This document shows, in pieces, positions 1 to 15,965 of a DNA stretch of 29,102 nucleotides. This stretch comes from Methanothrix sp. (GTDB taxonomy: Archaea; Halobacteriota; Methanosarcinia; Methanotrichales; Methanotrichaceae), in the NCBI GenBank assembly GCA_037128175.1, contig JBAXWY010000036.1:1-29102 (forward strand). The letters run 5' to 3'. Position 1 is the stretch's first letter. Each line of letters starts with the position of its first letter. The position numbers and the translations under genes are program-made. The notes beneath the pieces are model-generated. The model had not been told where the DNA came from. It saw only the letters and a list, made by a program, of their open reading frames with translations, and did no database searches.

Positions 1-30
1 AGGGAGGGCACTTACAGCCTAAAATTAGGC

Positions 31-1059
31 TTATTTAAGCCCAGCTGTACTAGTAAGATGATTGGATAGGACTAGAAGCGTCTTCTCATCCGCTGTTCTC
101 TGGCTCTCATCCCTATCCTTCATAAAAAGAGAAACCTCATCAAGCAGGAGAAGAATGCCGCTGTAGCCCTCGGCCATGATGACTCTGGCCATGTGCTCCA
201 GGATCTCTTCCAGATCAGCCTCGATACGCGGTCTAACCTTCAGGTATTCGTCATAAAATCTCCAGAGTTTGTTGCCGCAAGATTCCTTGTATGCGGGAGA
301 TTTATCATCCTGAATCTCGCGGATGAATTCGTCAATTTCCTCAAACTCATCTTCTTCAAAGAAGCGTGGATCTCGGAGAAACTTCTTGAGATCATTTCTG
401 TATCGATCTAAATCGTCACGGATGAATCGATCTGCCAGCAGTTCCACCGGATAAAGGGAAATATTTTTCCCTGATTCCCTCTGAAGTTGCTCCTTTGCCT
501 CATCCAGGATGTAATCCAACAGGCGTCTTCCGGAACCTACACCATCAGCGCTTCTGCCACCTGATCCTACCAGTGTTTTCACGACGACGAAGATGCCCTT
601 ATTGGGAGCAGAGCTCTTGGCCTCCAGGCCTTCCTCCCAGAACTGGTAGAGTGATTCTCGCTTTCCCCGACCGGCCTTTTGCTCTTTTTCTCGGACCAGT
701 TCCCAGGAATCCTTCGAGCCAAGAGCTAGCGAGGCCAGGAAACAGAGTAAGTGAGATTTGCCCGATCCGAACTCGGCCTGGATCCAGTAGCCTTGACCAA
801 TAGGATCGCCCACCCGGTCCGGTCGGTAGGGGGCGGCCATCTTTCGGAAGATGTCATTCAGGAAGGGGCGGACGGGATCGATCTGAAACTCCTGGATGGT
901 TTTAAGCTCCGGTTTTCTCAGGCGGAAGACATCTGGGTCGAGGTGGCCCCCGGCCCAGACATGCTGCTCAAGAGTGTAAACGGAGATAATTTTATCTGGA
1001 ATCTTGCATATCTTGTCCAGGCTCTCCCTGTAGGTGAAAATGTCCTGCGTGGCGTTCAT
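31..1059 (-). pseudogene. BREX-associated P-loop ATPase (BrxC/PglY/DUF6079-like), apparently C-terminally truncated
   Basis: Walker A 'AEFGSGKSHLL' and Walker B 'ILLLLDEVS'. The ATG at 1059 overlaps the methyltransferase stop (ATGA). The ORF ends about 35 aa after Walker B, whereas BrxC-type ATPases are typically >1000 aa. Confidence 0.7.
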
Positions 1060-3639
1060 GCTTGCCATCCCTCCAATTCTATCTGTGACTTCTTCGCCCT
1101 TCGAGGCTTCTTCTCCGGCTTAGGTGTTCTGGTCAGCATCTTGCCGCAGATCTGGTAGTCCTCGTCCACATTCACCTGCTCCTCTTCGGTCAGGCTCTCC
1201 AGGTTGAGGCCGCCTTTCTCGTAGAGCAGTTTGCCCTGCTCGTACATGCCCGAGCGCTTGCAGTGGCGGATCCAGTCGGCCAGGGTCGCGTCGCCCGGCC
1301 GCTCGCCCGCGGGCACGGGCACGCCCTGCTCCAGATAGGCCAGATAGCGCTTGATCCTGCGGCTGACGCCCTGTGCACGCCCCTCTTTCTTGATCTGCTC
1401 TTCTTCAGGGGAGGCAGGCAGGCGGTAGGTGCCCTCATCGGTTTTGTAGAAGTAATCGAGCAGCCACTCGACCAGAGGCCTGCGCGGCTTGTCCTTGGCC
1501 GGCACGGCGTAAACATAGTGCTCAAATACATCGGAGTAATGGACGCCTTCATCCTCTGGCTTCTTGGCTTTGGCAATGAACCCTTTGATGATATCAGCGG
1601 CAGCGTCTTCTTTGCCTGACTCGGCAGAATCGTCGATCTCCGTCTCCCGCAAGTACCAACGGGCAGCGCCGTTGGCCTCACCTTCGGTATGAAAAGGCTC
1701 AGCCACCTGGGAAAGAAGGTCCTCGAAATTGTGGGACTCCATCCGGCCCCGGCGCACCATGCGACTGACAACCTCGTCGAAGATGCGGTCCTTGGTAGAG
1801 CCTGGATTTGAAGTGAGGTAAATGGTTATGATGTTTTTGACCTTGTCCTGGAAGGTACCAAAGTCGTCAAGTTCCGTGATTAACGGGACGCCTAATTCAT
1901 CCGGCTTGGGCTTGCGGAAGTTGATGATTAAGTCGCGCTTATTGACTTTATCTGCATTAATCTGGTTGAAGGATTTCTGATCAGTATCGATAAAAAGTGC
2001 TAAGCTTGACTTTTCTACTACAAAACCTGCCTCTGCCATAATATCTTGGAGCATTGCCCATGTTCCTTCAGACGTATCGTGATAACAAAGGGATATTGCC
2101 CTGCCAGGCTTGAGGACGCGGAAGCATTCAGCCATGGCTTTTCGCATGTCATTTGCCCAATCAATCTCGGTCTTTCCGCGAATATCATTGATAACAATCT
2201 CCTCATTGTGCCAATTAGTATCGAAGCCAAGCCAAGATTCCCAGACAAAGTTCAACTCACCATATTGTACATTATCTGCGTATGGAGGATCTGTGAAAAT
2301 ATAATCAATTGAATTATTAGATAGACTATTAAAATTATAGGCGTTTTCTGTTGAGATGATGCAATATGCATTCTGTAGATTGGGAAGGATAGTCTGGTAT
2401 CCTTTTAAAATTCTCTTGAATTTATTCTCAAAATGTTTCCATTGCGGTTCCTCACAAGATATTTGCGGCAGGTAATATGTTCCTGTAAGCAGGTAAAATG
2501 GAAATGTGGCGTCTGGCATATACCGATTCATTTTTGAAAGGCCCAAAGAAATCCCCGTAAGCGTGAAACGCAAAACATCCGCGCAATCCTCTTGAAAAAT
2601 AGTAGTTTTTATTGAATTGAAAACTGCAGCCAGCGCCCACAGGTTGCGCTTGGTAAAAAGATCCGTCAGCTTGCTCGCATCTTCTTGACGGAAATCCTTC
2701 TTATAAAGCATTCTGTATGGAATCGCCTTTGCTAGATCTGCTTCAGGATACCAGTGCAGCATTTCTTTTTCTTCGAACTTCTTTTCTATCGTTTTGATTT
2801 TGCCCTGATCGTATTTCTCAAAAAATTCCCGTTTACTCAGATCGATATCATCGTGCCTGCGCTCAGCTCTTGCCGGTTTGCAGCCATTCTCGCAAGATGT
2901 AGCTAACCAAAACAGGAATTGGTCCGAAGTGCTCCCCCGTACTCTTGATCTGCTCCTGGATACCACGCATCTGGCAGTGAGGGCAGACCCTAACCTTCTT
3001 GGGCTTTCCCGACTTGGTTCTCCCTTCCACCACCGTGCAGTCGAAGAGTGCTACCTTCTCCATGCACCTGGGGCACTGGAAGACCTGCGAGTAAACCGTG
3101 CAGGCCGTGGTAGCCTTCCCCCCGCATCGTTCACACCTGGTTTCATACAGCCAGTCGATCTCCGGCTTGACCTTTGCCTTCAGCACCTCAAATGCCGCCC
3201 GCAGTTCATCCACATCCACCGGCGTGCAATAGTTCTTGGTGATGAAGGTAGCCGCAGGCGAGCGGTCGATGGCAATGGCCTTCCTGCCCTCCATGAGCGC
3301 TGCCAGGGCTGTTCCGCCCGAGCCGCAGAAGGGATCGAGCACCAGATCGCCCGGTTTCGTGTAGTGGCGGATGTACTCCCGGATGGCGTCGTGGGGCTTC
3401 TTGGACCAGTAGGTGTGCATGTTGTAGATGGCAGTGGCCTTGGTGGTCTCGATGGCGTGGTCGAAGGCCGGGACATCGTACTTATCAGTCTCGGGATCGT
3501 AAGGCCGCTCTGCCAGGTGCGCTTCCACGAAGGCCCGCAGGTTGGGATTGGGCTTGTCGCCGGAGTAGTAGCCCTCGGGCATCTGAGGAATGCGTTTCTT
3601 TTGTGCTGGCTTCTTGCGGTTGTCTGTCCAGGTGGTCAT
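1056..3639 (-). pseudogene. Large DNA adenine methyltransferase (PglX/PglXI-like, with Zn-ribbon), split by a +1 frameshift at about 2894
   Basis: The N-terminal ORF (ATG 3639, preceded by AGGGA) has SAM motif I 'DPFCGSG' and CxxC pairs (CERC, CPRC, CPHC). The C-terminal ORF has motif IV 'DPPY' (2280-2291) and 'RVLKPG'. Removing one base from TAC ATC T TGC GAG AAT joins them as ...VSYICENGCKP... Confidence 0.85.
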
Positions 3640-3779
3640 GGTGAAGTCCCTGGTTGCCTGATGAGATTCCAGACGATAAGACTTTTGGATGATTATTCTG
3701 CTCATCAAATAAGCGCGATCCGCGAAACGACTAAATATAAAGAGCTATCAATTCTTTTAAGGTAAGTGGAGCCGTTTTG

Positions 3780-4235
3780 ATGCTCGATGTTGACCTGTCA
3801 AGAGAAGAGGCTGATGCTATCTACGAAGCGCCCAAGTATGTAGACTCCAATGCGGTATCCTGGGAGATGACAGAAGGCAATTCCCAACGGATCAATATAT
3901 CTCTGACAACGGAAGACGGGACTCCTCTGCGAATCAGGGGCTGGTATAGCTGGGGTGGATCAATGAGATACGGATTCTCGCTCCTCTTCAAGAATACCAT
4001 CGTTATCAGACGCTGGGACAACAAATTGGGCCACAAAGATCCTGTAACCAGGAGCGAAACTACAGGACCTCACAAGCACTACCACGATCCGATTTATGCA
4101 GACTCACGATGTTATGAGACAAACGATGTTAGAACTGGCGATGTCAATGGCGCTCTATTTGACTTTATGAAGGAGTGCCATGTATCGATAGAAGGAATCG
4201 ATTATCAGTCATTGGGGGAATACCATGGAGTGTGA
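3780..4235 (+). CDS. Hypothetical His-motif protein (DUF6978/DUF6516-like)
   Basis: Intact ORF of about 151 aa with 'RRWDNKLGHKDP...GPHKHYH'. It overlaps the next gene by 11 nt. Family assignment is by motif recollection. Confidence 0.65.
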   Translation: MLDVDLSREEADAIYEAPKYVDSNAVSWEMTEGNSQRINISLTTEDGTPLRIRGWYSWGGSMRYGFSLLFKNTIVIRRWDNKLGHKDPVTRSETTGPHKHYHDPIYADSRCYETNDVRTGDVNGALFDFMKECHVSIEGIDYQSLGEYHGV

Positions 4236-4992
4236 AGAGATAGTCCGGCTTTATTTCGAAGGTATGAGAGATAGATTCTCTGTTGAAGCCACGGAAGATG
4301 GCTGCATCATTCGCACTCCCTACCAGGACCCGGATAATGATCCTATCAGCATTCACGTGAAAAAAGATGACAACTGCTTCCGGATATCAGACCAGACTCA
4401 GGCCATGGAGTTTCTATTCCTTCACGGCATAGATATCAGGCCAAAGTCCAAGCAGAGATGGCACTTCGACTCCATTCTAAGAAGGTTAGATGTCGATACG
4501 GCTGCAAATGAGCTGTACTTAGAAGTCCAGAAGGATGATCTAGCCGATGGCATAGCACGACTCATTGATGCCGTAAAATCAGCCGAGCATCTGGTTTACA
4601 CAGCAAAGACACGAAGCCAGCTGGATTTCGGAGAAGAAGTGGCCATCTGGCTAAGCAGCAACCAGATAATCTCGGATAGGAGAAGGGAGTTCATAGGAGC
4701 TTCAGGCAAGCAGGTACCTGTGGACTTTATAATTTCGCGCAAGAAAAAAGTGCCTGCCTTTTTGTATTCGCTCCATGCGGAGAGTCCAGGATACGCAAAC
4801 GGATTGGTAAATAAAACCATCGTAGCATGGATAGAACTGCGAGACGCCGGAATTCAATTCGATTCTGTCTGTCTTCTTGACGATACGGTAGAAGAAGATG
4901 TATGGAGAGAGCCTTATCCGAAACTGAAGAGACTCACAAGTACAGTAGCTTTCTGGGAGGAGAGGGATGAACTGCTGGAGGCGCTCGCTTGA
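4225..4992 (+). CDS. DUF1828/DUF1829-like protein (chaperone-like N-terminal domain plus restriction-endonuclease-like C-terminal domain)
   Basis: N-terminal 'IRTPYQDPDNDPISIHV...FRISD' matches the DUF1828 pattern. C-terminal 'IGASGKQVPVDFII...LLDD' resembles the GxSG..xDF motif of PD-(D/E)XK/Mrr-like folds. Confidence 0.75.
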   Translation: MECEEIVRLYFEGMRDRFSVEATEDGCIIRTPYQDPDNDPISIHVKKDDNCFRISDQTQAMEFLFLHGIDIRPKSKQRWHFDSILRRLDVDTAANELYLEVQKDDLADGIARLIDAVKSAEHLVYTAKTRSQLDFGEEVAIWLSSNQIISDRRREFIGASGKQVPVDFIISRKKKVPAFLYSLHAESPGYANGLVNKTIVAWIELRDAGIQFDSVCLLDDTVEEDVWREPYPKLKRLTSTVAFWEERDELLEALA

Positions 4993-5039
4993 TCGCCTTC
5001 AGATCAATTATGTGATTATCAATCAGTTCTGAGAACGCG

Positions 5040-5570
5040 TTATGCTCGCTCGTTCAGGCTCCATATGTGATCATCTGCAATGAGGTTGGTGGGTAGCAAG
5101 TAGCTGTCTTCGCCGGACTCGGAGAACATGATTATCTTGTCGCCAGCCCGCCTTCCAGGCAAGAGAAGTATCACTCTCTTCTGGTCCGTGGACAGAGTGC
5201 GGAGAGGATTCAGGTCCACGTCATAGGCGAAGAGAAGTTCCAGGTTAGAAAGCACTACGAGACCGTCTTCCATAAGCTTTTGGCGCAAAAACTTCTCAAA
5301 GGCCCGGTAGATATGAGCTCGGGTAGGCTCGGGCTTCCTGGCCTCGCTCTCAACGAGCTTTTTGAACTCGTCGTCCGGGATAGCACTGAGTATTCCTTTG
5401 TTTACCGAAGTTGGGGCTGGGAAGGGCTGGCCGTCAGAGGTCTTCGCCTCCTGGAGACGGAAAGCAAACCGCTCCAGGGCGCTGTAAGAACCGACTATGC
5501 CATACAGATGTCTCCCTACATCAACTGAAAGCTTGGCTATAATGGCCTCAATAATTTCCGTATCCCTTAT
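5040..5570 (-). CDS. BrxB/BrxF-like small protein (176 aa); canonical start codon missing (ATA)
   Basis: The frame stays open 94 codons upstream of the tracked TTG: IRDTEIIEAIIAKLSVDVGRHLYGIVGSY...SVNKGIL...LVVLSNLELLFAY...VILLLPG. A GGGAGGGA RBS-like sequence lies upstream of the ATA at 5570. The gene sits directly after the BrxA-like gene. Confidence 0.6.
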   Translation of the reverse strand: MRDTEIIEAIIAKLSVDVGRHLYGIVGSYSALERFAFRLQEAKTSDGQPFPAPTSVNKGILSAIPDDEFKKLVESEARKPEPTRAHIYRAFEKFLRQKLMEDGLVVLSNLELLFAYDVDLNPLRTLSTDQKRVILLLPGRRAGDKIIMFSESGEDSYLLPTNLIADDHIWSLNERA

Positions 5571-5657
5571 GCCTGCATCCCTCCCAACTGATCTTTAATT
5601 CTCTTCATGCATTGAAGTAATAAGTCCTTTAAGCGGTCTTCGGTCGGACAAAATATA

Positions 5658-6815
5658 TTATTGCATTATTCTTTCCGTCCCCAAGTATTCGATAAGTTCC
5701 TCTAGAGTGAACTTGGTAGTGAACTGCCTGAATCTGTCTATCTCTGAGACCTTTGCCAGGATGCCCTGATTCCTCAGTTCATATAGCCCGGCAAGCAGCT
5801 TATCTGGATTCCAGAGCATTGATTTTATAGCTTGATTCTGCTCCACATTTGATATCTCGTACATCCCAGGCTGTGGAAATTCGCTGTGGATCACAAAAGC
5901 CAGGGAGGCCGTCAATGGATCGCGATAGCCAAAACTGATTATCTTTCGGTCTGATCGAGCTAGGCCGCCAGCTACAAGAGAACTTACAATGGCCTGGGCG
6001 GACATATTGATAACATTGGCAGAGGGGTAACGTGCTGCCAGATATTCTCTTATCTTCAATCTGTCGAGCCGGCCATAACCGACGGCCGGCATCAACAGGT
6101 CATTAAAGATGGAGAGCATCAAAGGCTCTGCCTTGCAGAACCGGTAAAAGCAAGCATCTCGAAGCTCCTGGCGCCCCGAATAAATCTTGGCAAAAGATCT
6201 CAGCGCCCCATCCGCCTTGCCATCAGGAAACAGCCTGTTCACGATGTAGGGAACGTATCTATCTTTGGTGTTCTGGCCGCTGAAGGGCAAGTTCTCCTTG
6301 AGGAAAGCTCTTATTATGCCGATATCTTCCGTATCAGGCAGCCTGGGAAGAATCTCAATGGCTTCTTTTAGAACCGAATTGGTAAAAAGATCGCTCTTGC
6401 GCCGGGCAATATTTGCTTTGCGCAATTGCGTCTCTTTCTTCGATGGCAATATGGGCTCTTGATCTGACAATGGTTGAAACTTACTTAGGCTTTTTTGCGG
6501 CTTCTCAAAAACTTCTTTTTGTTGATCCTTGGCAGTTTCATTGGCGCGAAGATATCCTACGAGCTTTAGGAGCGTTGCGGTATATGATTTCACTCCCTTT
6601 ACCCGGCATAGAGCATCAAAATCAGAGGACAAAACGCCATCCAATCCTCCAAATTCTAAGATGAGCTTTTTAGCCAAAGGCTCAGGATTTCCTCTGCTCA
6701 GGGCATAGCTCAAAAGCAACTCAAGGAGTGCCTCATCCGTGAGTGCATTTGTCTCTCCTGAGAAAAAGTCATATCTCAGCTTCTGCCTTAGCCCTATCTC
6801 GCTTTTCTCAGCCAT
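5658..6815 (-). CDS. Fusion of a RadC/UPF0758 N-terminal HhH domain and a BrxA (DUF1819)-like domain
   Basis: Residues ~8-90 'LRQKLR...ALTDEALLELLLSYAL...LAKKLILEFGGLDGVL...LCRVKGV' match the RadC N-terminus, with no JAB HxHPSG motif. A low-complexity linker follows, then a ~240-aa helical domain resembling BrxA. Confidence 0.7.
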   Translation of the reverse strand: MAEKSEIGLRQKLRYDFFSGETNALTDEALLELLLSYALSRGNPEPLAKKLILEFGGLDGVLSSDFDALCRVKGVKSYTATLLKLVGYLRANETAKDQQKEVFEKPQKSLSKFQPLSDQEPILPSKKETQLRKANIARRKSDLFTNSVLKEAIEILPRLPDTEDIGIIRAFLKENLPFSGQNTKDRYVPYIVNRLFPDGKADGALRSFAKIYSGRQELRDACFYRFCKAEPLMLSIFNDLLMPAVGYGRLDRLKIREYLAARYPSANVINMSAQAIVSSLVAGGLARSDRKIISFGYRDPLTASLAFVIHSEFPQPGMYEISNVEQNQAIKSMLWNPDKLLAGLYELRNQGILAKVSEIDRFRQFTTKFTLEELIEYLGTERIMQ

Positions 6816-6954
6816 CCGTCCCTCATTAAGGCCATTAGAGATAAAGCCAAATTAAATTATTGGTCAAGACTGCATTCCAGAGAATCCTGTAACGAAGAGT
6901 AGTCATTGCTCTAATTTGGCCTTTTAGCGGATAGCCATTAGCCCATTTCGTGAC

Positions 6955-7638
6955 CTAAACCTTCCGCCCTCTCCGCACGCCCTTCCTCACAATCGTGTAA
7001 ATGGACTGCACGGTATTCCCGATAAAGAACCGCGGCGGCGTCCGCTTGCCCACCACCCGTGTCTGCCCGGCCCGGATGGCCGCCACTACCTCCTCTGCGT
7101 TTGCCGCCTCGATCTCCGTCACACCCAGCCCGACCGTGGCGGCAAAGTGCGAGTCGCTTCCCGCCACCATGGGCAGGTCTAGCTTCTTGGCGTTCCTCCG
7201 GGCCCTTGCGTTGGCTATGCCGAAGAGGTGCTTGGAGTTGTAGACCTCCACGGCATCGCAATCCGGTATGCGTCCGATGGCATGCCGGAAGGGATGGTAA
7301 GGATGGGGAACGATGGTGATGCCACCTTGCTCGCGGGCCATCTCGGACGTCTCTTCCGGGCTCCTGCCCCGGGACGGCAGCTCCTGCACGCCCAAAACCA
7401 ACAGGTGGCCCTCGGCGGTGGTGACCTCTCCTCCCGGTATGAGAATCAGGTCGAGCCTCTCTTCCCGGATGATCTTCATGGCTTTTAGAGAGCCCTGCAG
7501 GGTGTCGTGATCGGTTATGGACAGGCCGGCCAATCCGCGGCGCACGGCGGCGCGGAGAATGGTCCTGACCTCATCGCGGCCGTCGGAACAGTTGGAATGC
7601 ACATGCAGATCAAATCTCATCTTCGCCAGGGGCTCCAT
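6955..7638 (-). CDS. PHP-domain phosphoesterase
   Basis: Motifs 'DLHVHS', 'ITDHD', 'GGEVTT..GHLL', 'HPY', 'GSDSH'. Confidence 0.92.
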   Translation of the reverse strand: MEPLAKMRFDLHVHSNCSDGRDEVRTILRAAVRRGLAGLSITDHDTLQGSLKAMKIIREERLDLILIPGGEVTTAEGHLLVLGVQELPSRGRSPEETSEMAREQGGITIVPHPYHPFRHAIGRIPDCDAVEVYNSKHLFGIANARARRNAKKLDLPMVAGSDSHFAATVGLGVTEIEAANAEEVVAAIRAGQTRVVGKRTPPRFFIGNTVQSIYTIVRKGVRRGRKV

Positions 7639-7656
7639 TGTCTCAATTACATTCTT

Positions 7657-7752
7657 GTTAGTCGCTCTGTGCGTTCTCTGTGAGCTCTGTGTCTCTGTGG
7701 TGGAATCGTCGTTAGCCGCTGGTTATAGCCAAAACGGTTACAGACTACTACC
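7657..7752. repeat. CTCTGTG-heptamer repeat element, copy A (left arm plus spacer)
   Basis: 7657-7732 matches 16793-16868 at 68/76 positions without gaps and contains four CTCTGTG units. Confidence 0.85.
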
Positions 7753-9001
7753 CGCTAATTTCTGGCACAACCAGATAGCCGCTCAGTGCCGAGGCCGCCG
7801 CTGTGGCTGGGCTGGCTAGATAAACCAGTCCTCCTTTGCCCATCCGCCCTGGAAAATTGCGGTTGGAGGTGGAGACGCAGACTTCCCCCTCCGCCAAGAC
7901 GCCCATGTGCGCACCCAGGCAGGGCCCGCATCCCGGCGGACCGATCATCGCCCCCGCTTCCACCAGCGTCTGGATGATGCCGCTTTGCAATGCCGCCAGC
8001 AGAACCTCTCGAGAGGCAGGGATGACCAGAGTTCTCGCGATAACCCGCTTTCCCTTCAAAATGCGCGCGGCGACTGCCAGATCCTCCAGCCTTCCGTTGG
8101 TGCAGGTGCCTATGAAGACCTGATCAACCTCCAGGCCATCCAGCTCCGAGACAGGCCGAACATTGTCCACCCGGTAGGGTACGGCTACCTGCGGCTCTAG
8201 ATCAGTTATATCGTATTCGTATTCATAATCGTATGAACCGGGATCGGAGAACACCGGCTTGTAAGGCTGGCGCGCCCGGCCCGCCAGCCAGGCATCCGTC
8301 TTTTTGTCGGGCGGAACTATTGTGGCCTTGGCCCCCATCTCCACGCCCAAATTGCACAGCGTCATCCTGCCGGATATGCTCAGATCCTCAATGACCGGTC
8401 CGATGTACTCGACGGTCTTGTAGGTCGCCCCGTCAGCGCCCTGCTTGCCTATTATCATGAGCGCAATGTCCTTGGCGTATACGTTGGGCTTAAGCCTGCC
8501 GGACACCCGCACGGCTATGGTCTCAGGCACCTTAAACCACAAACGCCCCCTCGAATAGATCTCGGCCATGTCCGTGGCCCCCACGCCCGTGCCAAACGCC
8601 CCCAGGGCCCCATAGGTGCAGGAATGAGAATCGGCCCCTACCAACAGGAGTCCGGGCAAGGCAAATCCCTGCTCGGGAAAGACCTGGTGGCATACTCCTG
8701 AGCCGCAGTCAAAAAAGTTGCTGATATTCTGCTCTTTCGCCCAGGCCCGCACATCCTTTTGTAGCTCAGCCGCCGTCTCATTATTGGCAGGAACGATATG
8801 ATCGAAGGGTATGACAATCCTTTCCGGGTTCCATACCTTCTCCGAGCCCATTTCCTGGAAAGCCTTGATGGCCAGGACACTTGTTCCGTCATGAGACATG
8901 ACGTAATCCACGCCTGCCTCAAGAATCTCCCCCGGCTCCACCAAATTAGCGGAACCGGAGGCCCGTGAAAAGATTTTTTGGCTTATCGTTCCAGTCGCCA
9001 T
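7748..9001 (-). CDS. 3-isopropylmalate dehydratase/homoaconitase family large subunit (LeuC/HacA)
   Basis: Motifs 'DHIVP', 'GVCHQ', '[11 protein letters not shown]', 'IGTCTNGR', 'GCGPCLG', '[12 protein letters not shown]'. Confidence 0.95.
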
Positions 9002-9042: not shown

Positions 9043-10908
9043 TTAAGCTCGACGCTTGCATTCAATGTCCTCCGGGGAAGGCATAATGTAAGCGATATCC
9101 TCCGCAGGATGGCGGTAGAGCCTTGAACCCAACCGCTTTTGGTCCAGGATATGCCCGATCAGGCCGATGCTTCTGCCCAGGGCAAACAGCCCATTGAGAT
9201 AGCCCAGACGCACCACTTCATCGATCTCCGCCTTGCTGAAGGCTCCGCAGGAGGTCATCAGATCCAGGAAGAGAATTCCGATGCAGCCATCCACATTCAA
9301 GATCAGATTTCCCTTCTTGGCCGTGGTAAGCTCCTCAACCTGCAGGGCGTAATTGAGCAGCTCTGTGCTCGGGAAGTTCGCCCTGGCGTAGCTTATGAGT
9401 AATTGCACGCGCTTGTCCGGGTTCTTGACGCTCTTGATCTTGTGGCCGATGCCCGGGATGTTGATGCCCTTCCTCTTCATGTCGCTGACAAACTGCTCAG
9501 GCGTCAGATCCGCCTCTTTAGCGTGCTTGAATTCGCGAGCAGCATCGTCGATGGCACCACCGAAGCGCGGGCCGATGGTCAAGAGGCCGCTACATAGTGA
9601 TGATATGAGGTCTTTTCCGGCGCATGAAGCCACAATGGCGTTGTGGGCCCCGGATACGGCCGGGCCATGGTCGGCCACGATCTGCAAGACAAGCTCAATG
9701 AACCCGGCGGCATAGTCAGGCAGCTCCTTCTTAAACCAGAGCAGTCCGATGACCCCACCGATGCCCATCTTCTCATCCATAACAGCGGATAGCTTCTTTC
9801 CGGCATAGAGCACCTCTTCTCCGCTGTCGTCAGATATGGTGCAGATGAATGTGGTCGGCTTTCTGATGTCGCCGGAAGCCAACGCTTTGCTGTAGTCCGC
9901 CGGAATTCTTGGTGCTTCGGGCTCAATGAGCGGCAAAACTGAGCCCTGAGAGAGCAGCGTCTCGTATACCTGTCGCACACAATCGCCATAGCCATCGAAC
10001 GATGTGGGAACATAGGCACCTGCCTCAGAAAAGGCATCATTCTTGGCCTGAGCCGTCTCCTTGTGAGTATCGGCCTTAGCTCCGGCATGGCCAAATTGAA
10101 CGCTGGCGGGAAGCACGGGCGAGCAGGTTCCCGTCACCCATGCTACCAGCGGCTTTTTGATCTTGCCCTCTTTCAGGGCGGAAATGATCCTGTACTCGTC
10201 CTCGCCGCCCAGTTCTCCCAGGCAGGCAATCATCTTGATGGCGGGATTTTCCTCATAGCGCAGAATGTGGTCGAGCATTGTCGAGCCGGGATAGCGATCT
10301 CCGCCAATGGCCACGCCCTCGTAAATGCCGTCTGAGTTTCGGGAGATGATGTTGAAGGCCTCATTGAGCATGCCACCCGATTTGGAGACAAAACCAACAC
10401 ATCCCGGCCGGTAGAGCTTGGAGGCGATGATGTTCTCGATGGTCCCGGCGGTATTACCGATACGAAAAGCTCCCGCCGTCATGCCTCCTACCGTTGCCGG
10501 ACCGATGATGATCTTGCCCTGCTTTTTGGCTGTGGCGCTCATGATCCGCGACTGCCTCTCCGGCACCCCTTCGGCTATGACTGCCACAACGCGAATGCTT
10601 TTCTCTGCTATTGCCTCCATGGTGGTATCGAAGGCGGAACGGTGCGAAGCGAAGTTGACCATCACATCGGCTTTTGGATAGGCTTTGGCTGCCAGGGAGA
10701 TGCTCCTGTACATGGGTAGGATGATCTCTTTGCTTCCCCAAAAGGCCTTGTGAATGCCGGCTCGGCTGGGATTGATGATAGCAGAGATGCTCGGATCGGG
10801 GCGATTGCAGATGTAATCGAAGTCCAGCATGCGCTGGATGGCATTGGTCTGATAGCCGTAGACGAAGGCTTTCGTGTTTCTATCAAAGAGAACGTAATTC
10901 TGGCTCAT
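9043..10908 (-). CDS. aclA: ATP-citrate lyase alpha subunit
   Basis: CoA-binding and ligase domains ('IIGPATVGG', 'FGHAGA' phospho-His) followed by a citryl-CoA lyase domain ('ADHGPAVSGAHN', 'IPGIGHKIKS', 'ILNVDG'). Confidence 0.95.
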   Translation of the reverse strand: MSQNYVLFDRNTKAFVYGYQTNAIQRMLDFDYICNRPDPSISAIINPSRAGIHKAFWGSKEIILPMYRSISLAAKAYPKADVMVNFASHRSAFDTTMEAIAEKSIRVVAVIAEGVPERQSRIMSATAKKQGKIIIGPATVGGMTAGAFRIGNTAGTIENIIASKLYRPGCVGFVSKSGGMLNEAFNIISRNSDGIYEGVAIGGDRYPGSTMLDHILRYEENPAIKMIACLGELGGEDEYRIISALKEGKIKKPLVAWVTGTCSPVLPASVQFGHAGAKADTHKETAQAKNDAFSEAGAYVPTSFDGYGDCVRQVYETLLSQGSVLPLIEPEAPRIPADYSKALASGDIRKPTTFICTISDDSGEEVLYAGKKLSAVMDEKMGIGGVIGLLWFKKELPDYAAGFIELVLQIVADHGPAVSGAHNAIVASCAGKDLISSLCSGLLTIGPRFGGAIDDAAREFKHAKEADLTPEQFVSDMKRKGINIPGIGHKIKSVKNPDKRVQLLISYARANFPSTELLNYALQVEELTTAKKGNLILNVDGCIGILFLDLMTSCGAFSKAEIDEVVRLGYLNGLFALGRSIGLIGHILDQKRLGSRLYRHPAEDIAYIMPSPEDIECKRRA

Positions 10909-12173
10909 GTAGATGCACCATCCAATGCCAGGGGAACAATTCTGGTCATATGCGTCTCAGGTCCGTATACTTCAATGGGCACGCCTAGCCTTCCGCCAAC
11001 ACTCCGCATAAGCTTCAGGCCCTGCTCATAATTGGGGCCGCCTCTCCTCACATAAATCTTGACGCCCGCATCCTGTAGCATTTGCTGGTACTCCTCCAAG
11101 GCCATGACCACGCCCTTGAAGGTCTTGGCCACATCTGTGAAGTTGGCAATAGCGCCTCCTATGAGCAGCATCTTTCCGCGGGGGTCAATGCGACGCGTCA
11201 TCAGGTCCAAAATGGTCCTGGTGTAGTAGTAAGTCTCCTCGGTATTGGGATCGCCGCTGTATTCACCGTAATTGGCCATCTCCTTGGCAAAGCCCAGATC
11301 GCAGATGGTATCGGCGTAGATCACGCTCGCCCCGCCTCCGGCCACCATGGTCCAGACCCTTCCTTCCGGATTTAAAATGGTCAGCTTCAAAGAGGCTCCC
11401 GTCTTGGAATCAAGATCCTTGATGAACTGCTCTTCCTTGGACAGGCTTCTGCCGAAGGGCTCGGGGAAAGAGAGACCTGACCATCTTTTCCTCTGCCAGT
11501 ACTCCTCGGCATCATCAAGCTTGGCCACCATATCCAAAGGCACAATTGAGCCGTTATAGAAGGTAAAGGGATTGATCTCCAGATAGGAAAAGCCCGTTTC
11601 TGCATAAAAGCGCCACAAAGCCTTGATGAAATTCTCAACGGCGGTGCTCTTTTCCCCTAGATCCCCGGGCAAGCGGGACTTTATATCGACGCCATCTATT
11701 CCGGCCAGTACATCGACATGAAAACGAACTACTTTATCCCAATTCTCCTCCACAAAGACGCCGCCTTGCATGGAGAAGAAAATGTTGTCGCCATCGCTGT
11801 TCGAGCTGATGGCCACATAAAGCTCCTCTATGTGGGGTATGAAGGGTTCAATTAAGAAATGGGATAGCCTGCCGGTTATGTCTCCAACTGCGACCAATGC
11901 ACCCATGTTCTCCTGAAGGAATTCCTTCGCCCGATCCCAATCTGCATCCAGAAGAACCAGCCCGTGCTTGCCCCTCTTTCCAAAGAGCTGATCCGGCTTG
12001 ACGACTAGCCTTGCCGTCTTCAGCCAGGGATGAGTTGATGCCAACTCCTCCAGATCGGTCTCTGGTCCTACAAGGGCGAGTTCGCCCTTATAGGAGAATT
12101 CATTGAGGTACTGGGGAAGGAATCCGGCCAGCAAACGCTTTGCATCGTACTCCCTAATGCCTCTTTGTGCCAT
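10905..12173 (-). CDS. aclB: ATP-citrate lyase beta subunit
   Basis: Likely start MAQRGIREYDAK at 12173. ATP-grasp motifs 'VKPDQLFGKRGK', 'YLEINP', 'MVAGGGASV', 'NYGEYSG', 'RRGGPNY'. Overlaps aclA by 4 nt. Confidence 0.95.
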   Translation of the reverse strand: MAQRGIREYDAKRLLAGFLPQYLNEFSYKGELALVGPETDLEELASTHPWLKTARLVVKPDQLFGKRGKHGLVLLDADWDRAKEFLQENMGALVAVGDITGRLSHFLIEPFIPHIEELYVAISSNSDGDNIFFSMQGGVFVEENWDKVVRFHVDVLAGIDGVDIKSRLPGDLGEKSTAVENFIKALWRFYAETGFSYLEINPFTFYNGSIVPLDMVAKLDDAEEYWQRKRWSGLSFPEPFGRSLSKEEQFIKDLDSKTGASLKLTILNPEGRVWTMVAGGGASVIYADTICDLGFAKEMANYGEYSGDPNTEETYYYTRTILDLMTRRIDPRGKMLLIGGAIANFTDVAKTFKGVVMALEEYQQMLQDAGVKIYVRRGGPNYEQGLKLMRSVGGRLGVPIEVYGPETHMTRIVPLALDGAST

Positions 12174-12285
12174 GTTCAAAACCACCTTCGCCGCCTTAAT
12201 GATTTTCTTATTTACAAACCTTTCTAAAGGAAAAAGCCTAAAATGGCTCTTGAATGGCGAAATACTCCAGGGGGATCGGCTTACT

Positions 12286-13284
12286 ATGAAGTGTCCTGTT
12301 TGCAAAAAAGGCTGCATTCAGCCTGCAATAGAGGTTCTGGCAGAGATCGAGCAAAGGTACCCGGCCTGCCCGGCATGCGCGCCGGAGCCCAATTTAGACA
12401 AAACAGCAAGGTCAAAGCTTCTTCCGGAAAGGGTGGAAAGGTGCAGATCCTGCGGCAAAGCAACGCTTGACGGCGTAATGCTCGATGCCCTGCGCTTGCT
12501 GCAAGGCTACGGTCTGCGCGATGAAGATGAGACGTTGCGCTCCGTGGGCTCGCCGCTCATTGAGGTCGGCTATCCCCTGGCCTACTCGCCCCGGCTTGGG
12601 CCCAGGAGCCTGATACTTTCCGGTGACAGGTACAACAAAGAGGCCGCGGAGGCGATGCTAGAGCAAATTCCGGAGATCAAGGGAGTGATTCTGAGCAGGG
12701 GCGTTGCCGGAGTGATCGCCAGAGGGAAAAAGCCCCAGGAGAATTTGCTAATGGCCGGCTGCGACATGCGCGCCGACATCTCTCAAAGCCTCTTTGGGGA
12801 AACTGTGATATACAAAAGCCAGTCGCGAATACACATCGAATTTTCCCGGCAGAGCGCCCCCAAGATGAGAATTTTAGAGCAGCTATATTTGCAAGGAAAG
12901 CTTCGCGATGTGGTGGATGGGCTCGCGGGTCCGGGAACACTGGGGCTGATGTGCGTTTTAGCCGGGGCCAAGCGCGTGGTGCTCAATGATGCCTGGCTTG
13001 CCAGCGTGCAAAACGTGCTGCTCAATCTGGAAGCTAATAGAAGCTTGCTTGGAATCGATGAGATAGAGTATCCGGAAACCTCCAGGAGCACCGTGGGAAA
13101 GCAGCCGGTGCTCGTCGGTCGCGCCCATGGGGCCTGTGAGATCGAAGTCTATCACGGCGACCTTTTGAGGCTCTTTTCCAGAGCGCGGCCCGCCGACATT
13201 TGTCTGATCGATCACTTTCCCGGTGCTAATACAGCGGAGCTGGAGAGGGCCTGCCGGTGCTGTAAAGAGATAGTAATCGTGTAA
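12286..13284 (+). CDS. Conserved hypothetical protein with N-terminal Cys/Zn-finger and SAM-dependent methyltransferase-like C-terminus
   Basis: CPVC, CPAC and CRSC motifs, plus 'VVDGLAGPGTLGL...VVLND' Rossmann motif I. The ATG at 12286 follows GGGGGA. Confidence 0.7.
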   Translation: MKCPVCKKGCIQPAIEVLAEIEQRYPACPACAPEPNLDKTARSKLLPERVERCRSCGKATLDGVMLDALRLLQGYGLRDEDETLRSVGSPLIEVGYPLAYSPRLGPRSLILSGDRYNKEAAEAMLEQIPEIKGVILSRGVAGVIARGKKPQENLLMAGCDMRADISQSLFGETVIYKSQSRIHIEFSRQSAPKMRILEQLYLQGKLRDVVDGLAGPGTLGLMCVLAGAKRVVLNDAWLASVQNVLLNLEANRSLLGIDEIEYPETSRSTVGKQPVLVGRAHGACEIEVYHGDLLRLFSRARPADICLIDHFPGANTAELERACRCCKEIVIV

Positions 13285-13331
13285 AGAATAATAGAGCAAT
13301 AATTGAGGAACGGTTGAATAATAACAATTAG

Positions 13332-13406
13332 TGGGACAGCGCGGATTCGAACCGCGGTCCAAGAGTCCCAAACCCTCGAGGATAGACCAGGCTACCCCAC
13401 TGTCCC
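13332..13406 (-). tRNA. tRNA-Pro (anticodon UGG), no intron, CCA not encoded
   Basis: The reverse complement GGGACAGTGGGGTAGCCTGGTCTATCCTCGAGGGTTTGGGACTCTTGGACCGCGGTTCGAATCCGCGCTGTCCCA folds as a cloverleaf with anticodon loop TTTGGGA. Confidence 0.97.
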
Positions 13407-15250: not shown

Positions 15251-15454
15251 ATGGCTGAAGAAAAAGGAAGTTCCAAAAAAGATGTAAAGGGCACGATGAC
15301 CGTTCAGGAGGCAGGCAGAAAAGGCGGCACGAAGACCGCCCAGACACACGGTAAGGATTTTTATGAAGAAATCGGCCACAAGGGCGGCCAGAGGGTCAAA
15401 GAACTCATTGAAGAAGGAAAGAGATCCAAGGCACTGAGCAGAGAGAAGCAGTAG
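15251..15454 (+). CDS. KGG-repeat general stress protein (GsiB/Em-like)
   Basis: 'MTVQEAGRKGG...HGKDFYEEIGHKGGQRVKELIEEGK'. Confidence 0.9.
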   Translation: MAEEKGSSKKDVKGTMTVQEAGRKGGTKTAQTHGKDFYEEIGHKGGQRVKELIEEGKRSKALSREKQ

Positions 15455-15671: not shown

Positions 15672-15965
15672 CTATTTCTCTTTGTTTATTCTCATCTTGG
15701 ACTCGATAGATACATCCTTATCCAGGCGGTAATCGATATGAACCGTGGTTATTATTCTCGGCACGCCCATCTTTGCCAGCTTTTTATTCGCCATCTCGAT
15801 CACACTAAAGAGCTGCTCAAAGCTGCTTGCCTCAATGACAGTAGACATGGGTCCGGCAGCAAATTTAATGCCGGAATGTCTTAAAAGCTCATGCACGGCC
15901 CGCACATATTGGGAGGCACTCGTTCCCGCGCCCATGGGAATGGTGGCGAAGTCTGCTACAATCAT
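15672..15965 (-). CDS. MTH1187/YkoF family thiamine-binding protein
   Basis: 'MIVADFATIPMG..TSASQYV', 'GPMSTVIE', 'RIIT...IDYRLDK'. Confidence 0.9.
   Translation of the reverse strand: MIVADFATIPMGAGTSASQYVRAVHELLRHSGIKFAAGPMSTVIEASSFEQLFSVIEMANKKLAKMGVPRIITTVHIDYRLDKDVSIESKMRINKEK

Follow-up and report, generated by a model that had tools for sequence, protein, structure and literature searches.

A probable BREX variant pairing PglXI and a BrxF-like protein with BrxL, found as a truncated and probably disabled copy in Methanothrix

We analysed a stretch of 29,102 nt from Methanothrix sp. (contig JBAXWY010000036.1, assembly GCA_037128175.1), hereafter called the window, in which an initial annotation had placed an atypical BREX-like defence locus at positions 31–6815. 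BREX systems belong to the most broadly distributed prokaryotic defence families; the mechanism by which they stop phages has yet to be settled, and the role of BrxL is disputed. The type 1 system is laid out as brxA-brxB-brxC-pglX-pglZ-brxL. We consider it highly probable that the locus in the window is a BREX variant of a composition not found in the published schemes, present here as a copy that is truncated and probably disabled. Comparison with related loci suggests that the family is probably an undescribed variant in which the type 3 hallmarks BrxF and PglXI are joined by BrxL, a hallmark of types 1 and 4. The novelty lies in the family, not in the window copy.

The four co-oriented genes and the antisense two-gene cassette that had been described for this locus are all present on the evidence of open reading frames (ORFs) and profile matches. 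On the minus strand lie the brxA-like gene (6815..5658), a small gene ending at 5040, the methyltransferase gene (3708–1056) and the ATPase ORF (1068..31). The cassette occupies the plus strand between brxF and pglXI (3777..4235 and 4225..4992). The assignment to the BREX family is borne out by BrxC, PglXI and BrxF-like matches in the window and by PglZ and BrxL in its relatives.

These relatives were collected by scanning GTDB species genomes with a BrxC alignment, which yielded 78 loci, 9 archaeal and 69 bacterial by record title and many of them from anaerobes. Clustering of the ORFs gave six recurrent families, denoted A (BrxA-like fusion), F (BrxF-like), X (PglXI), C (BrxC), Z (PglZ) and L (BrxL), of which PglZ and BrxL are the two missing from the window. 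Where at least 5 kb of upstream sequence was present (42 loci), A was found in 40 and F in 39. Among the 38 loci in which C is complete and is followed by 8.5 kb or more of sequence, L was found in 33 and Z in all; in each of the 38 pglZ follows brxC, in agreement with the earlier remark that this gene falls outside the window. X was found in 26/26 loci that had both flanks, and 22 of these carried all six genes. The PglZ proteins of the relatives (≈965 aa) matched Pfam PglZ with 35.8 bits (cut-off 25) and the PADLOC model at 6.5e-12; the best of the typed NCBIfam models was BREX_PglZ_3 (1.6e-11). The BrxL proteins are full-length and match the PADLOC model at 2.4e-166 and PDB entry 8emc at 1.8e-102, and have the make-up of type 1 BrxL (BrxL_N, an MCM-like AAA+ part and a Lon-like C-domain), the Pfam scores being 97 bits for BrxL_N, 383 for BrxL_ATPase and 175 for Lon_C. 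Two NCBIfam models also matched, TIGR02688 with 463 bits (above its cut-off of 329) and TIGR02653 with 485 bits (below its cut-off of 628).

We considered the possibility that the locus is an accidental neighbourhood within a defence island, consisting of an orphan methyltransferase, an unrelated ATPase fragment and a RadC-like gene that do not form one system. The island does have a lower G+C content than its flank, and it holds an unrelated cassette. However, these genes recur together, with their orientation conserved, across the 9 archaeal and 69 bacterial loci, and the stop codon of pglXI overlaps the start of brxC, which makes a chance assemblage extremely improbable.

BrxF and PglXI belong to type 3 BREX, the canonical set of which is BrxF, BrxC, PglXI, BrxHII, PglZ and BrxA (PMC10799925, PMC12839542; these and the other papers are cited here for those parts of their text that were available), in the gene order brxF-brxC-pglXI-brxHII-pglZ-brxA. 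In the available part of a 2026 survey (PMC12839542), PglXI, also called BrxXI, is described as the type 3 methyltransferase with a four-Cys Zn-finger insert in the target recognition domain, BrxHII is found in 77% of type 3 systems, and BrxL is “entirely absent” from type 3. It is because BrxF and PglXI occur together with BrxL, which the survey says is absent from type 3, that we read the family as a probably undescribed variant. No BrxHII/SNF2 helicase was detected with Pfam or PADLOC/NCBIfam models in 77 + 7 embedded ORFs of the relatives, and none in 53 ORFs from their flanks that are 450 aa or longer. The only helicase-like ORFs among those scanned were UvrD-like in L067 and DEAD/DbpA in L059. 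The claim that the gene set fits no published type, having BrxF and PglXI with BrxL and with no BrxHII found, was therefore upheld.

The locus might alternatively be a canonical type 3 system whose genes are simply in another order and whose end is cut off by the window. The family shares with type 3 a BrxF-like inactive P-loop protein, a PglXI that has the Zn-finger insert and the DPPY motif, a BrxA-like DNA-binding protein, BrxC and PglZ; the first two and the BrxA-like protein are type 3 hallmarks, and the preference of PglZ for the type 3 model points the same way. Such a reading is nevertheless improbable. BrxHII was found neither in any relative nor, among ORFs of 450 aa or longer, in the 10-kb flanks, and in its stead 33 of 38 relatives carry the BrxL that the survey reports missing from type 3. 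BrxC and PglZ lie far below the typed models: the former has no NCBIfam match, and the latter reaches 43 bits where 250 are required. Furthermore, the BrxA-like gene comes first in the operon and its product is fused to a RadC-N helix-hairpin-helix (HhH) domain, while the position of X varies.

A second alternative, that the locus is a DUF499/DUF1156 “BREX-related” (BR) restriction-modification-like system and not BREX proper, draws on weak matches of the methyltransferase to DUF1156 anti-phage models (NCBIfam 8.9e-6; PADLOC 9.7e-4). The type 3 BR systems described by Rakesh and Krishnan in 2026 (PMC12839542, available part) comprise a DUF499 ATPase, a BrxHII-like helicase, a stand-alone PglZ and an iSTAND protein. 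PglZ and an iSTAND are common to them and to our family, as is a Zn-finger methyltransferase resembling PglXI, all within one locus. The NCBIfam DUF1156 match, however, reached 24 bits against a cut-off of 1000, and the ATPase relatives carry DUF6079 and BrxC_BrxD, not DUF499. The family moreover has a long PglZ (≈965 aa) and BrxL, with no helicase found, where BR systems have a helicase and a stand-alone PglZ. We regard a BR identity as very unlikely indeed. The plain type 3 and DUF1156/DUF499 readings were both rejected on the grounds just given for each.

Several observations weigh against an undescribed BREX variant, or against the identity of its components. BrxL was not found in 5 of the 38 relatives within the DNA at hand, and the low score of PglZ against BREX_PglZ_3 has been given above. 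For the full-length BrxC relative the Pfam PF10923 score was 19.5 bits (cut-off 22.2), and neither NCBIfam nor the PDB sequences gave a match. The F protein of the window scored 28.3 bits against NCBIfam BREX_3_BrxF, for which the cut-off is 50. The window’s own A protein had no Pfam BrxA match, and a Foldseek search of its model against the PDB gave nothing at E ≤ 0.001, the fold matches having modest E-values of 0.005–0.1. Finally, no paper turned up in a literature search for a seventh type of BREX, but the supplement of the survey, which lay outside that search, may list these loci. We nevertheless consider a BREX variant of new composition the probable reading.

The initial annotation counted the placement of the methyltransferase before the ATPase among the features that fit neither the type 1 nor the type 3 layout, and proposed checking whether the gene order is conserved among homologous loci. 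The backbone order A-F-C-Z-L proved to be constant, but the position of X did not. In the 76 loci where brxC lies on the plus strand, X was found only before C in 18, only after Z in 19 and only after C in 6. It was duplicated in others, being present before C and after Z in 6 and before C and after L in 5, and none of these adjacencies was seen in the remaining 22. On a FastTree phylogeny of 48 methyltransferases, the position label changed at least seven times on well-supported branches. The X-before-C order of the window is one recurrent arrangement and not a hallmark of the family. In L053 and in L060, the X copies before brxC and after pglZ are sisters within each locus with a support of 100, which points to local duplication as a route by which X is relocated. 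The two closest relatives of the window have X before C: L057 (97% BrxC identity), which sits at the same chromosomal site, reads A-F-X-C-Z-L, and L001 (96%) reads X-C-Z-L.

A search of plasmids with BrxC (tblastn) returned a single distant match, L079, on the Halorarius halobius plasmid NZ_CP101162.1 (14184–24006). The genes there are a methyltransferase, a “BrxA family protein”, a 173-aa hypothetical protein, a 1,301-aa hypothetical protein and PglZ, followed by a metallophosphoesterase. The 1,301-aa protein is 22.8% identical to the BrxC described here, and neither BrxL nor BrxHII is annotated in that locus.

The leading gene of the window locus (5658..6815, minus strand) encodes a 385-aa protein with an N-terminal RadC-N/UPF0758_N HhH domain, a disordered linker at aa ≈99–140 and a BrxA-like helix-turn-helix or winged helix-turn-helix region at aa ≈148–385. 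The N-terminal part matches NCBIfam RadC (4.3e-8, aa 22–113) and, weakly, Pfam UPF0758_N (E = 0.0041). Proteins of this kind form a conserved family of ≈385 aa, with 557 matches in our search and 100 clusters at E ≤ 1e-30. In a 29-member alignment, UPF0758_N was recognized in 26 and Pfam BrxA (PF08849) in 7 members at E ≤ 0.01; the best BrxA score was 25.1 bits against a cut-off of 23, and one member exceeded that cut-off. An AlphaFold2 (AF2) model of the A protein (pLDDT 83.1) consists of two folded parts with the disordered linker between them. Its Foldseek matches in the PDB, each at a probability of 1.00, were SspB (6juf, E = 5.3e-3), 3bhw (E = 0.032, TMt 0.66) and BrxA itself (7zge, E = 0.099, TMt 0.56). 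BrxA is described as SspB/FokI-like in the available part of the survey (PMC12839542). From the Pfam matches of the A family and the fold matches, the leading protein is probably a RadC-N and BrxA fusion, as the initial annotation had it. A literature search for a RadC-BrxA fusion in BREX found no description of one among the papers listed.

The second gene (5040..5570, minus strand, 176 codons) encodes a protein with an inactive P-loop (iSTAND) that is matched by BrxF models and whose modelled fold resembles BrxB. The ORF with a canonical start, 5288..5040, covers only the last 82 codons, but the frame is open for 185 codons and is conserved upstream of that start. The probable start is an ATA codon at 5570–5568, preceded by GGGAGG, which aligns with the start Met of the F family. 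Of the F genes in 40 loci, 28 start with ATG, 7 apparently with ATA, 4 with GTG and 1 with TTG. Those with ATA, all with a GGGAGG-like ribosome-binding site before it, come from both archaea and Firmicutes (the window, L002, L008, L016, L020, L021 and L052). Standard ORF finding thus yields a gene that is too short, and the product had accordingly been given as 82 aa instead of ≈176. The protein matches NCBIfam BREX_3_BrxF (1.2e-6) and PADLOC BrxF (1.2e-4). The best PDB fold match of the 176-aa AF2 model (pLDDT 88.6) was chain G of 9zll (E = 9.3e-4, probability 1.00), which is BrxB of Acinetobacter, since the entry is a BrxC1-551:BrxB:PglZ1-98 complex and the chain has 189 residues. A profile of the BrxF-like family found chance-level matches only among PDB sequences. 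The P-loop is degenerate (GRHLYGIVGSY), as reported for BrxB/BrxF iSTANDs.

The methyltransferase had been described as a single Zn-ribbon adenine methyltransferase. The enzyme is indeed there, but in two ORFs in different frames (3708..2863 and 2966..1056). Family alignment places the start Met at 3639, and the 5′ frame runs to a stop at 2863. The 5′ part of pglXI (2896..3639, minus strand), a BrxXI-type N6-adenine methyltransferase, carries the DPFCGSGGT S-adenosylmethionine motif and the CxxC pairs of the Zn-ribbon; the 3′ part (1056..2894, minus strand) carries the DPPY catalytic motif and the C-terminal region, so that the order is motif I, Zn-ribbon, DPPY. The 5′ half matches PADLOC PglXI at 2e-47 and Pfam N6_N4_Mtase at 6.2e-16, and the 3′ half matches PADLOC PglXI at 1.5e-54 (model positions 331–624 of 919); an intact relative from L008 reaches 4.9e-106 against the same model. 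The DPPY/Zn-ribbon enzyme, previously taken as a sign of novelty, is thus the ordinary PglXI of type 3. In an alignment of the window pglXI with relatives of 841–855 aa, the split was traced to a +1 frameshift, one extra T at 2894..2895 on the minus strand, where the window has ATCTTGC and the relatives ATC-TGC or AT-TTGC. The relatives read PVLVSYICENGCKP at this site, and the extra T is missing from 5/5 of those aligned (L057, L002, L004, L008 and L005).

Four loci (L014:14304-15473, L006:14280-15440, L017 and L026) have a gene for a Ser/Thr protein kinase between brxC and pglZ. The last ≈80 aa of this kinase are homologous to the C-terminal region of PglXI, at aa ≈528–609 of the 636-aa ORF in the window. 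The region may be a shared docking module.

The stop codon of pglXI and the second ATG of brxC overlap as ATGA at 1059–1056, confirming the coupling noted earlier. What follows is a P-loop ATPase, as had been stated, but only its first quarter: the window holds the first ≈335 codons of brxC (54..1059, minus strand), encoding a DUF6079-type AAA+ ATPase with the Walker A motif GSGKSH and the Walker B motif LLLLDEVS, a truncation that had been overlooked. Full-length BrxC relatives are ≈1,447 aa long, with PF10923 and PF19557/DUF6079 in precomputed annotation; PADLOC BrxC matches were weak. The fragment itself clears the Pfam BrxC_BrxD cut-off of 22.2 with 24.7 bits. The invariant columns of brxC end at L335, and homology at the DNA level ends at position 50 with L001 and at position 62 with L057 and L002. 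The bases beyond (1..53, strand not assigned) have no homology to the relatives, contain an early stop codon (33..31), and do not recur elsewhere in the window or in any of the 78 loci. They may stem from the border of an insertion, from a rearrangement or from a join made during assembly.

Because of the +1 frameshift in pglXI and the break in brxC after about codon 335, we think that the window copy is probably disabled. Both lesions could be errors of assembly or sequencing, which weighs against a genuinely disabled copy: the system may be intact and functional, with the additional T and the interruption of brxC arising as artefacts, for example from a contig end in a repeat or from a chimeric join. 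The break is only 53 bases from the window start, and the other frames of the locus are all clean. In the related L057, brxC is split into five ORFs, as would be expected if some such contigs carry indel errors. However, the extra T lies in a run of no more than two identical bases and is missing from the five aligned relatives, and the 53 bases past the break are real sequence, unlike brxC and with a stop codon. Interrupted pglX genes are, furthermore, reported to be common in nature (PMC9716671, available part). We thus consider the artefact explanation the less likely one, though it retains an appreciable chance, and favour a disabled copy. L057 (10001–14354), a syntenic Methanotrichaceae contig, also has its pglXI in pieces; its breaks are either assembly indel errors or the mark of a second decayed copy.

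The BrxL proteins of the relatives have an additional feature of interest. Type 1 BrxL is described as being without the Ser-Lys dyad of Lon (PMC12839542, available part). In the family, the motifs PKEGPSAG (Ser) and GGIQ(E/Q)K (Lys) align to those of E. coli Lon (1rr9), and of 32 BrxL proteins, comprising that of L001 (8228–10288) and those of 31 other related-locus genes, 31 have the Ser motif. The Lon domain is also far closer to true Lon (1e-41) than to the C-domain of Acinetobacter BrxL (5.5e-11). By its motifs, the family BrxL thus appears to keep the Lon dyad, and proteolysis may be part of the mechanism.

The two genes of the plus-strand cassette, noted earlier as an embedded second module, correspond to the PADLOC candidate pair PDC-M24, and represent a candidate defence system at the junction between brxF and pglXI. 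The first (3777..4235, 152 aa, DUF6978/TumE-like) matches PADLOC PDC-M24A at 2.1e-5, Pfam TumE at 5.1e-4 and Pfam DUF6978 at 1.1e-6. The second (4225..4992, 255 aa, DUF1828) matches PADLOC PDC-M24B over its full length at 1.1e-30 and Pfam DUF1828 at 3.1e-14. They are adjacent on one strand in the order A then B, with an overlap of 11 nt. A repeat search found none flanking the cassette; the sole tandem repeat, 17 nt in 2.4 copies, is inside the PDC-M24A gene (4090–4131). A literature search for “PDC-M24” found no paper, and a tblastn search of plasmids with PDC-M24B gave 8 distant matches. In the syntenic L057, a Fic gene takes the place of the pair. In 28 relatives and the window, 101 extra ORFs lie between core genes (some may be calling artefacts), and of the 51 junctions so occupied, 41 adjoin the methyltransferase gene. 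Among the defence and toxin-antitoxin cargo of the relatives are Fic, DarT/DarG, MntA/HepT and further HEPN-nucleotidyltransferase pairs, GmrSD, PIN, AAA_21 with DUF4276, AAA_15 with DUF3226, DUF4062 with Schlafen-AlbA, TIR with 8xMP, and IS200/PDDEXK transposases.

The window is part of an archaeal chromosome. The closest protein matches are to named Methanothrix (97% identity), and to the right of the locus lie genes for a PHP hydrolase, aconitase, ATP-citrate-lyase-like proteins, tRNA-Pro, archaeal Pus10, Rpb4/RpoF and aRF1. The G+C content of the defence island is 0.42–0.55, below that of this flank. Compared with L057, the defence genes (5042–6879) are 94.8% identical at the DNA level and the adjoining housekeeping flank (6955–8884) is 87.0% identical, which hints at a recent exchange of the locus.

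At 9043–12317 and 7748–9001 lie the ATP-citrate-lyase-like genes, of a two-subunit kind (Citrate_bind, Citrate_synth_N and CoA-ligase plus Citrate_synt), and an adjoining aconitase-family gene. The tRNA-Pro(TGG) at 13331–13406 was called by ARAGORN; an Rfam scan of the whole window at gathering thresholds gave 0 matches. Between 14917 and 16049, where the G+C content is 0.43, there is no ORF of 110 aa or more, only small ones such as 15251..15454 (plus strand, 67 aa, Lys/Gly-rich) and 15672..15965 (minus strand, 97 aa). A scan for sigma-70 promoters and terminators, which is ill-suited to archaea, found no more sites than in shuffled sequences.

The full system would comprise the six genes A, F, X, C, Z and L, of which the window holds the promoter-proximal two thirds; Z and L are seen in relatives only. 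The biochemistry of type 1 (PMC13326643, available part) has given a model with a B:C:Z core, a BrxA-BrxC interaction and a PglZ nuclease. By analogy, F would link BrxC to PglZ in a core complex, which would license PglXI to methylate a short, non-palindromic motif in the host DNA, and A would bind DNA and modulate BrxC. Incoming unmethylated DNA would then be blocked through the nuclease activity of PglZ and the ring ATPase of BrxL.

The combination of the type 3 modification module (PglXI and BrxF) with BrxL in place of the helicase would imply that the “motor” component is interchangeable between BREX types, and the apparently active Lon site would allow a direct test of proteolysis in defence. 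The family also documents a methyltransferase gene that moves and is duplicated within a fixed backbone, with other defence genes nested beside it. Since the typed NCBIfam and PADLOC models are confident for BrxL and PglXI only, such loci will be missed or mis-typed. The window copy matters less, being one case of a methanogen whose BREX locus is probably disabled. More tentatively, and with slightly less than an even chance of being right, we propose that these loci represent a seventh, unnamed BREX lineage that has spread horizontally among anaerobic bacteria and methanogens. Such a lineage would be defined by a fixed HhH-BrxA/BrxF/BrxC/PglZ/BrxL backbone, a movable PglXI cassette, a Lon-competent BrxL with a proteolytic restriction step, and junctions beside the methyltransferase gene that act as a landing pad where further defence and toxin-antitoxin modules settle.

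Among the known systems, the type 3 and BR systems have been compared above. With type 1 the family shares the backbone order of A, a small inactive P-loop protein, C, Z and L, the full length of BrxL, and a small P-loop protein whose model best matches the BrxB chain in 9zll. It differs from type 1 in its methyltransferase, a beta-type PglXI instead of a gamma-type PglX with an N-terminal helical domain; no PglX-specific model was among the methyltransferase matches listed, of which PglXI was the best. It differs also in a BrxL that appears to keep the Ser-Lys dyad and is nearer to true Lon, and in a BrxC of ≈1,447 aa without a PDB sequence match, even though 9zll, with residues 1–551 of Acinetobacter BrxC, is in the PDB. 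The nested cargo has a counterpart in ORF376, which lies between PglXI and BrxHII in type 3 (PMC10799925, available part): both are unrelated defence genes beside the methyltransferase gene, but the cargo in the window is different, being an antisense two-gene pair. That pair has the same gene order as PADLOC PDC-M24, with its first member just under the Pfam DUF6978 cut-off (29.4 against 29.6 bits).

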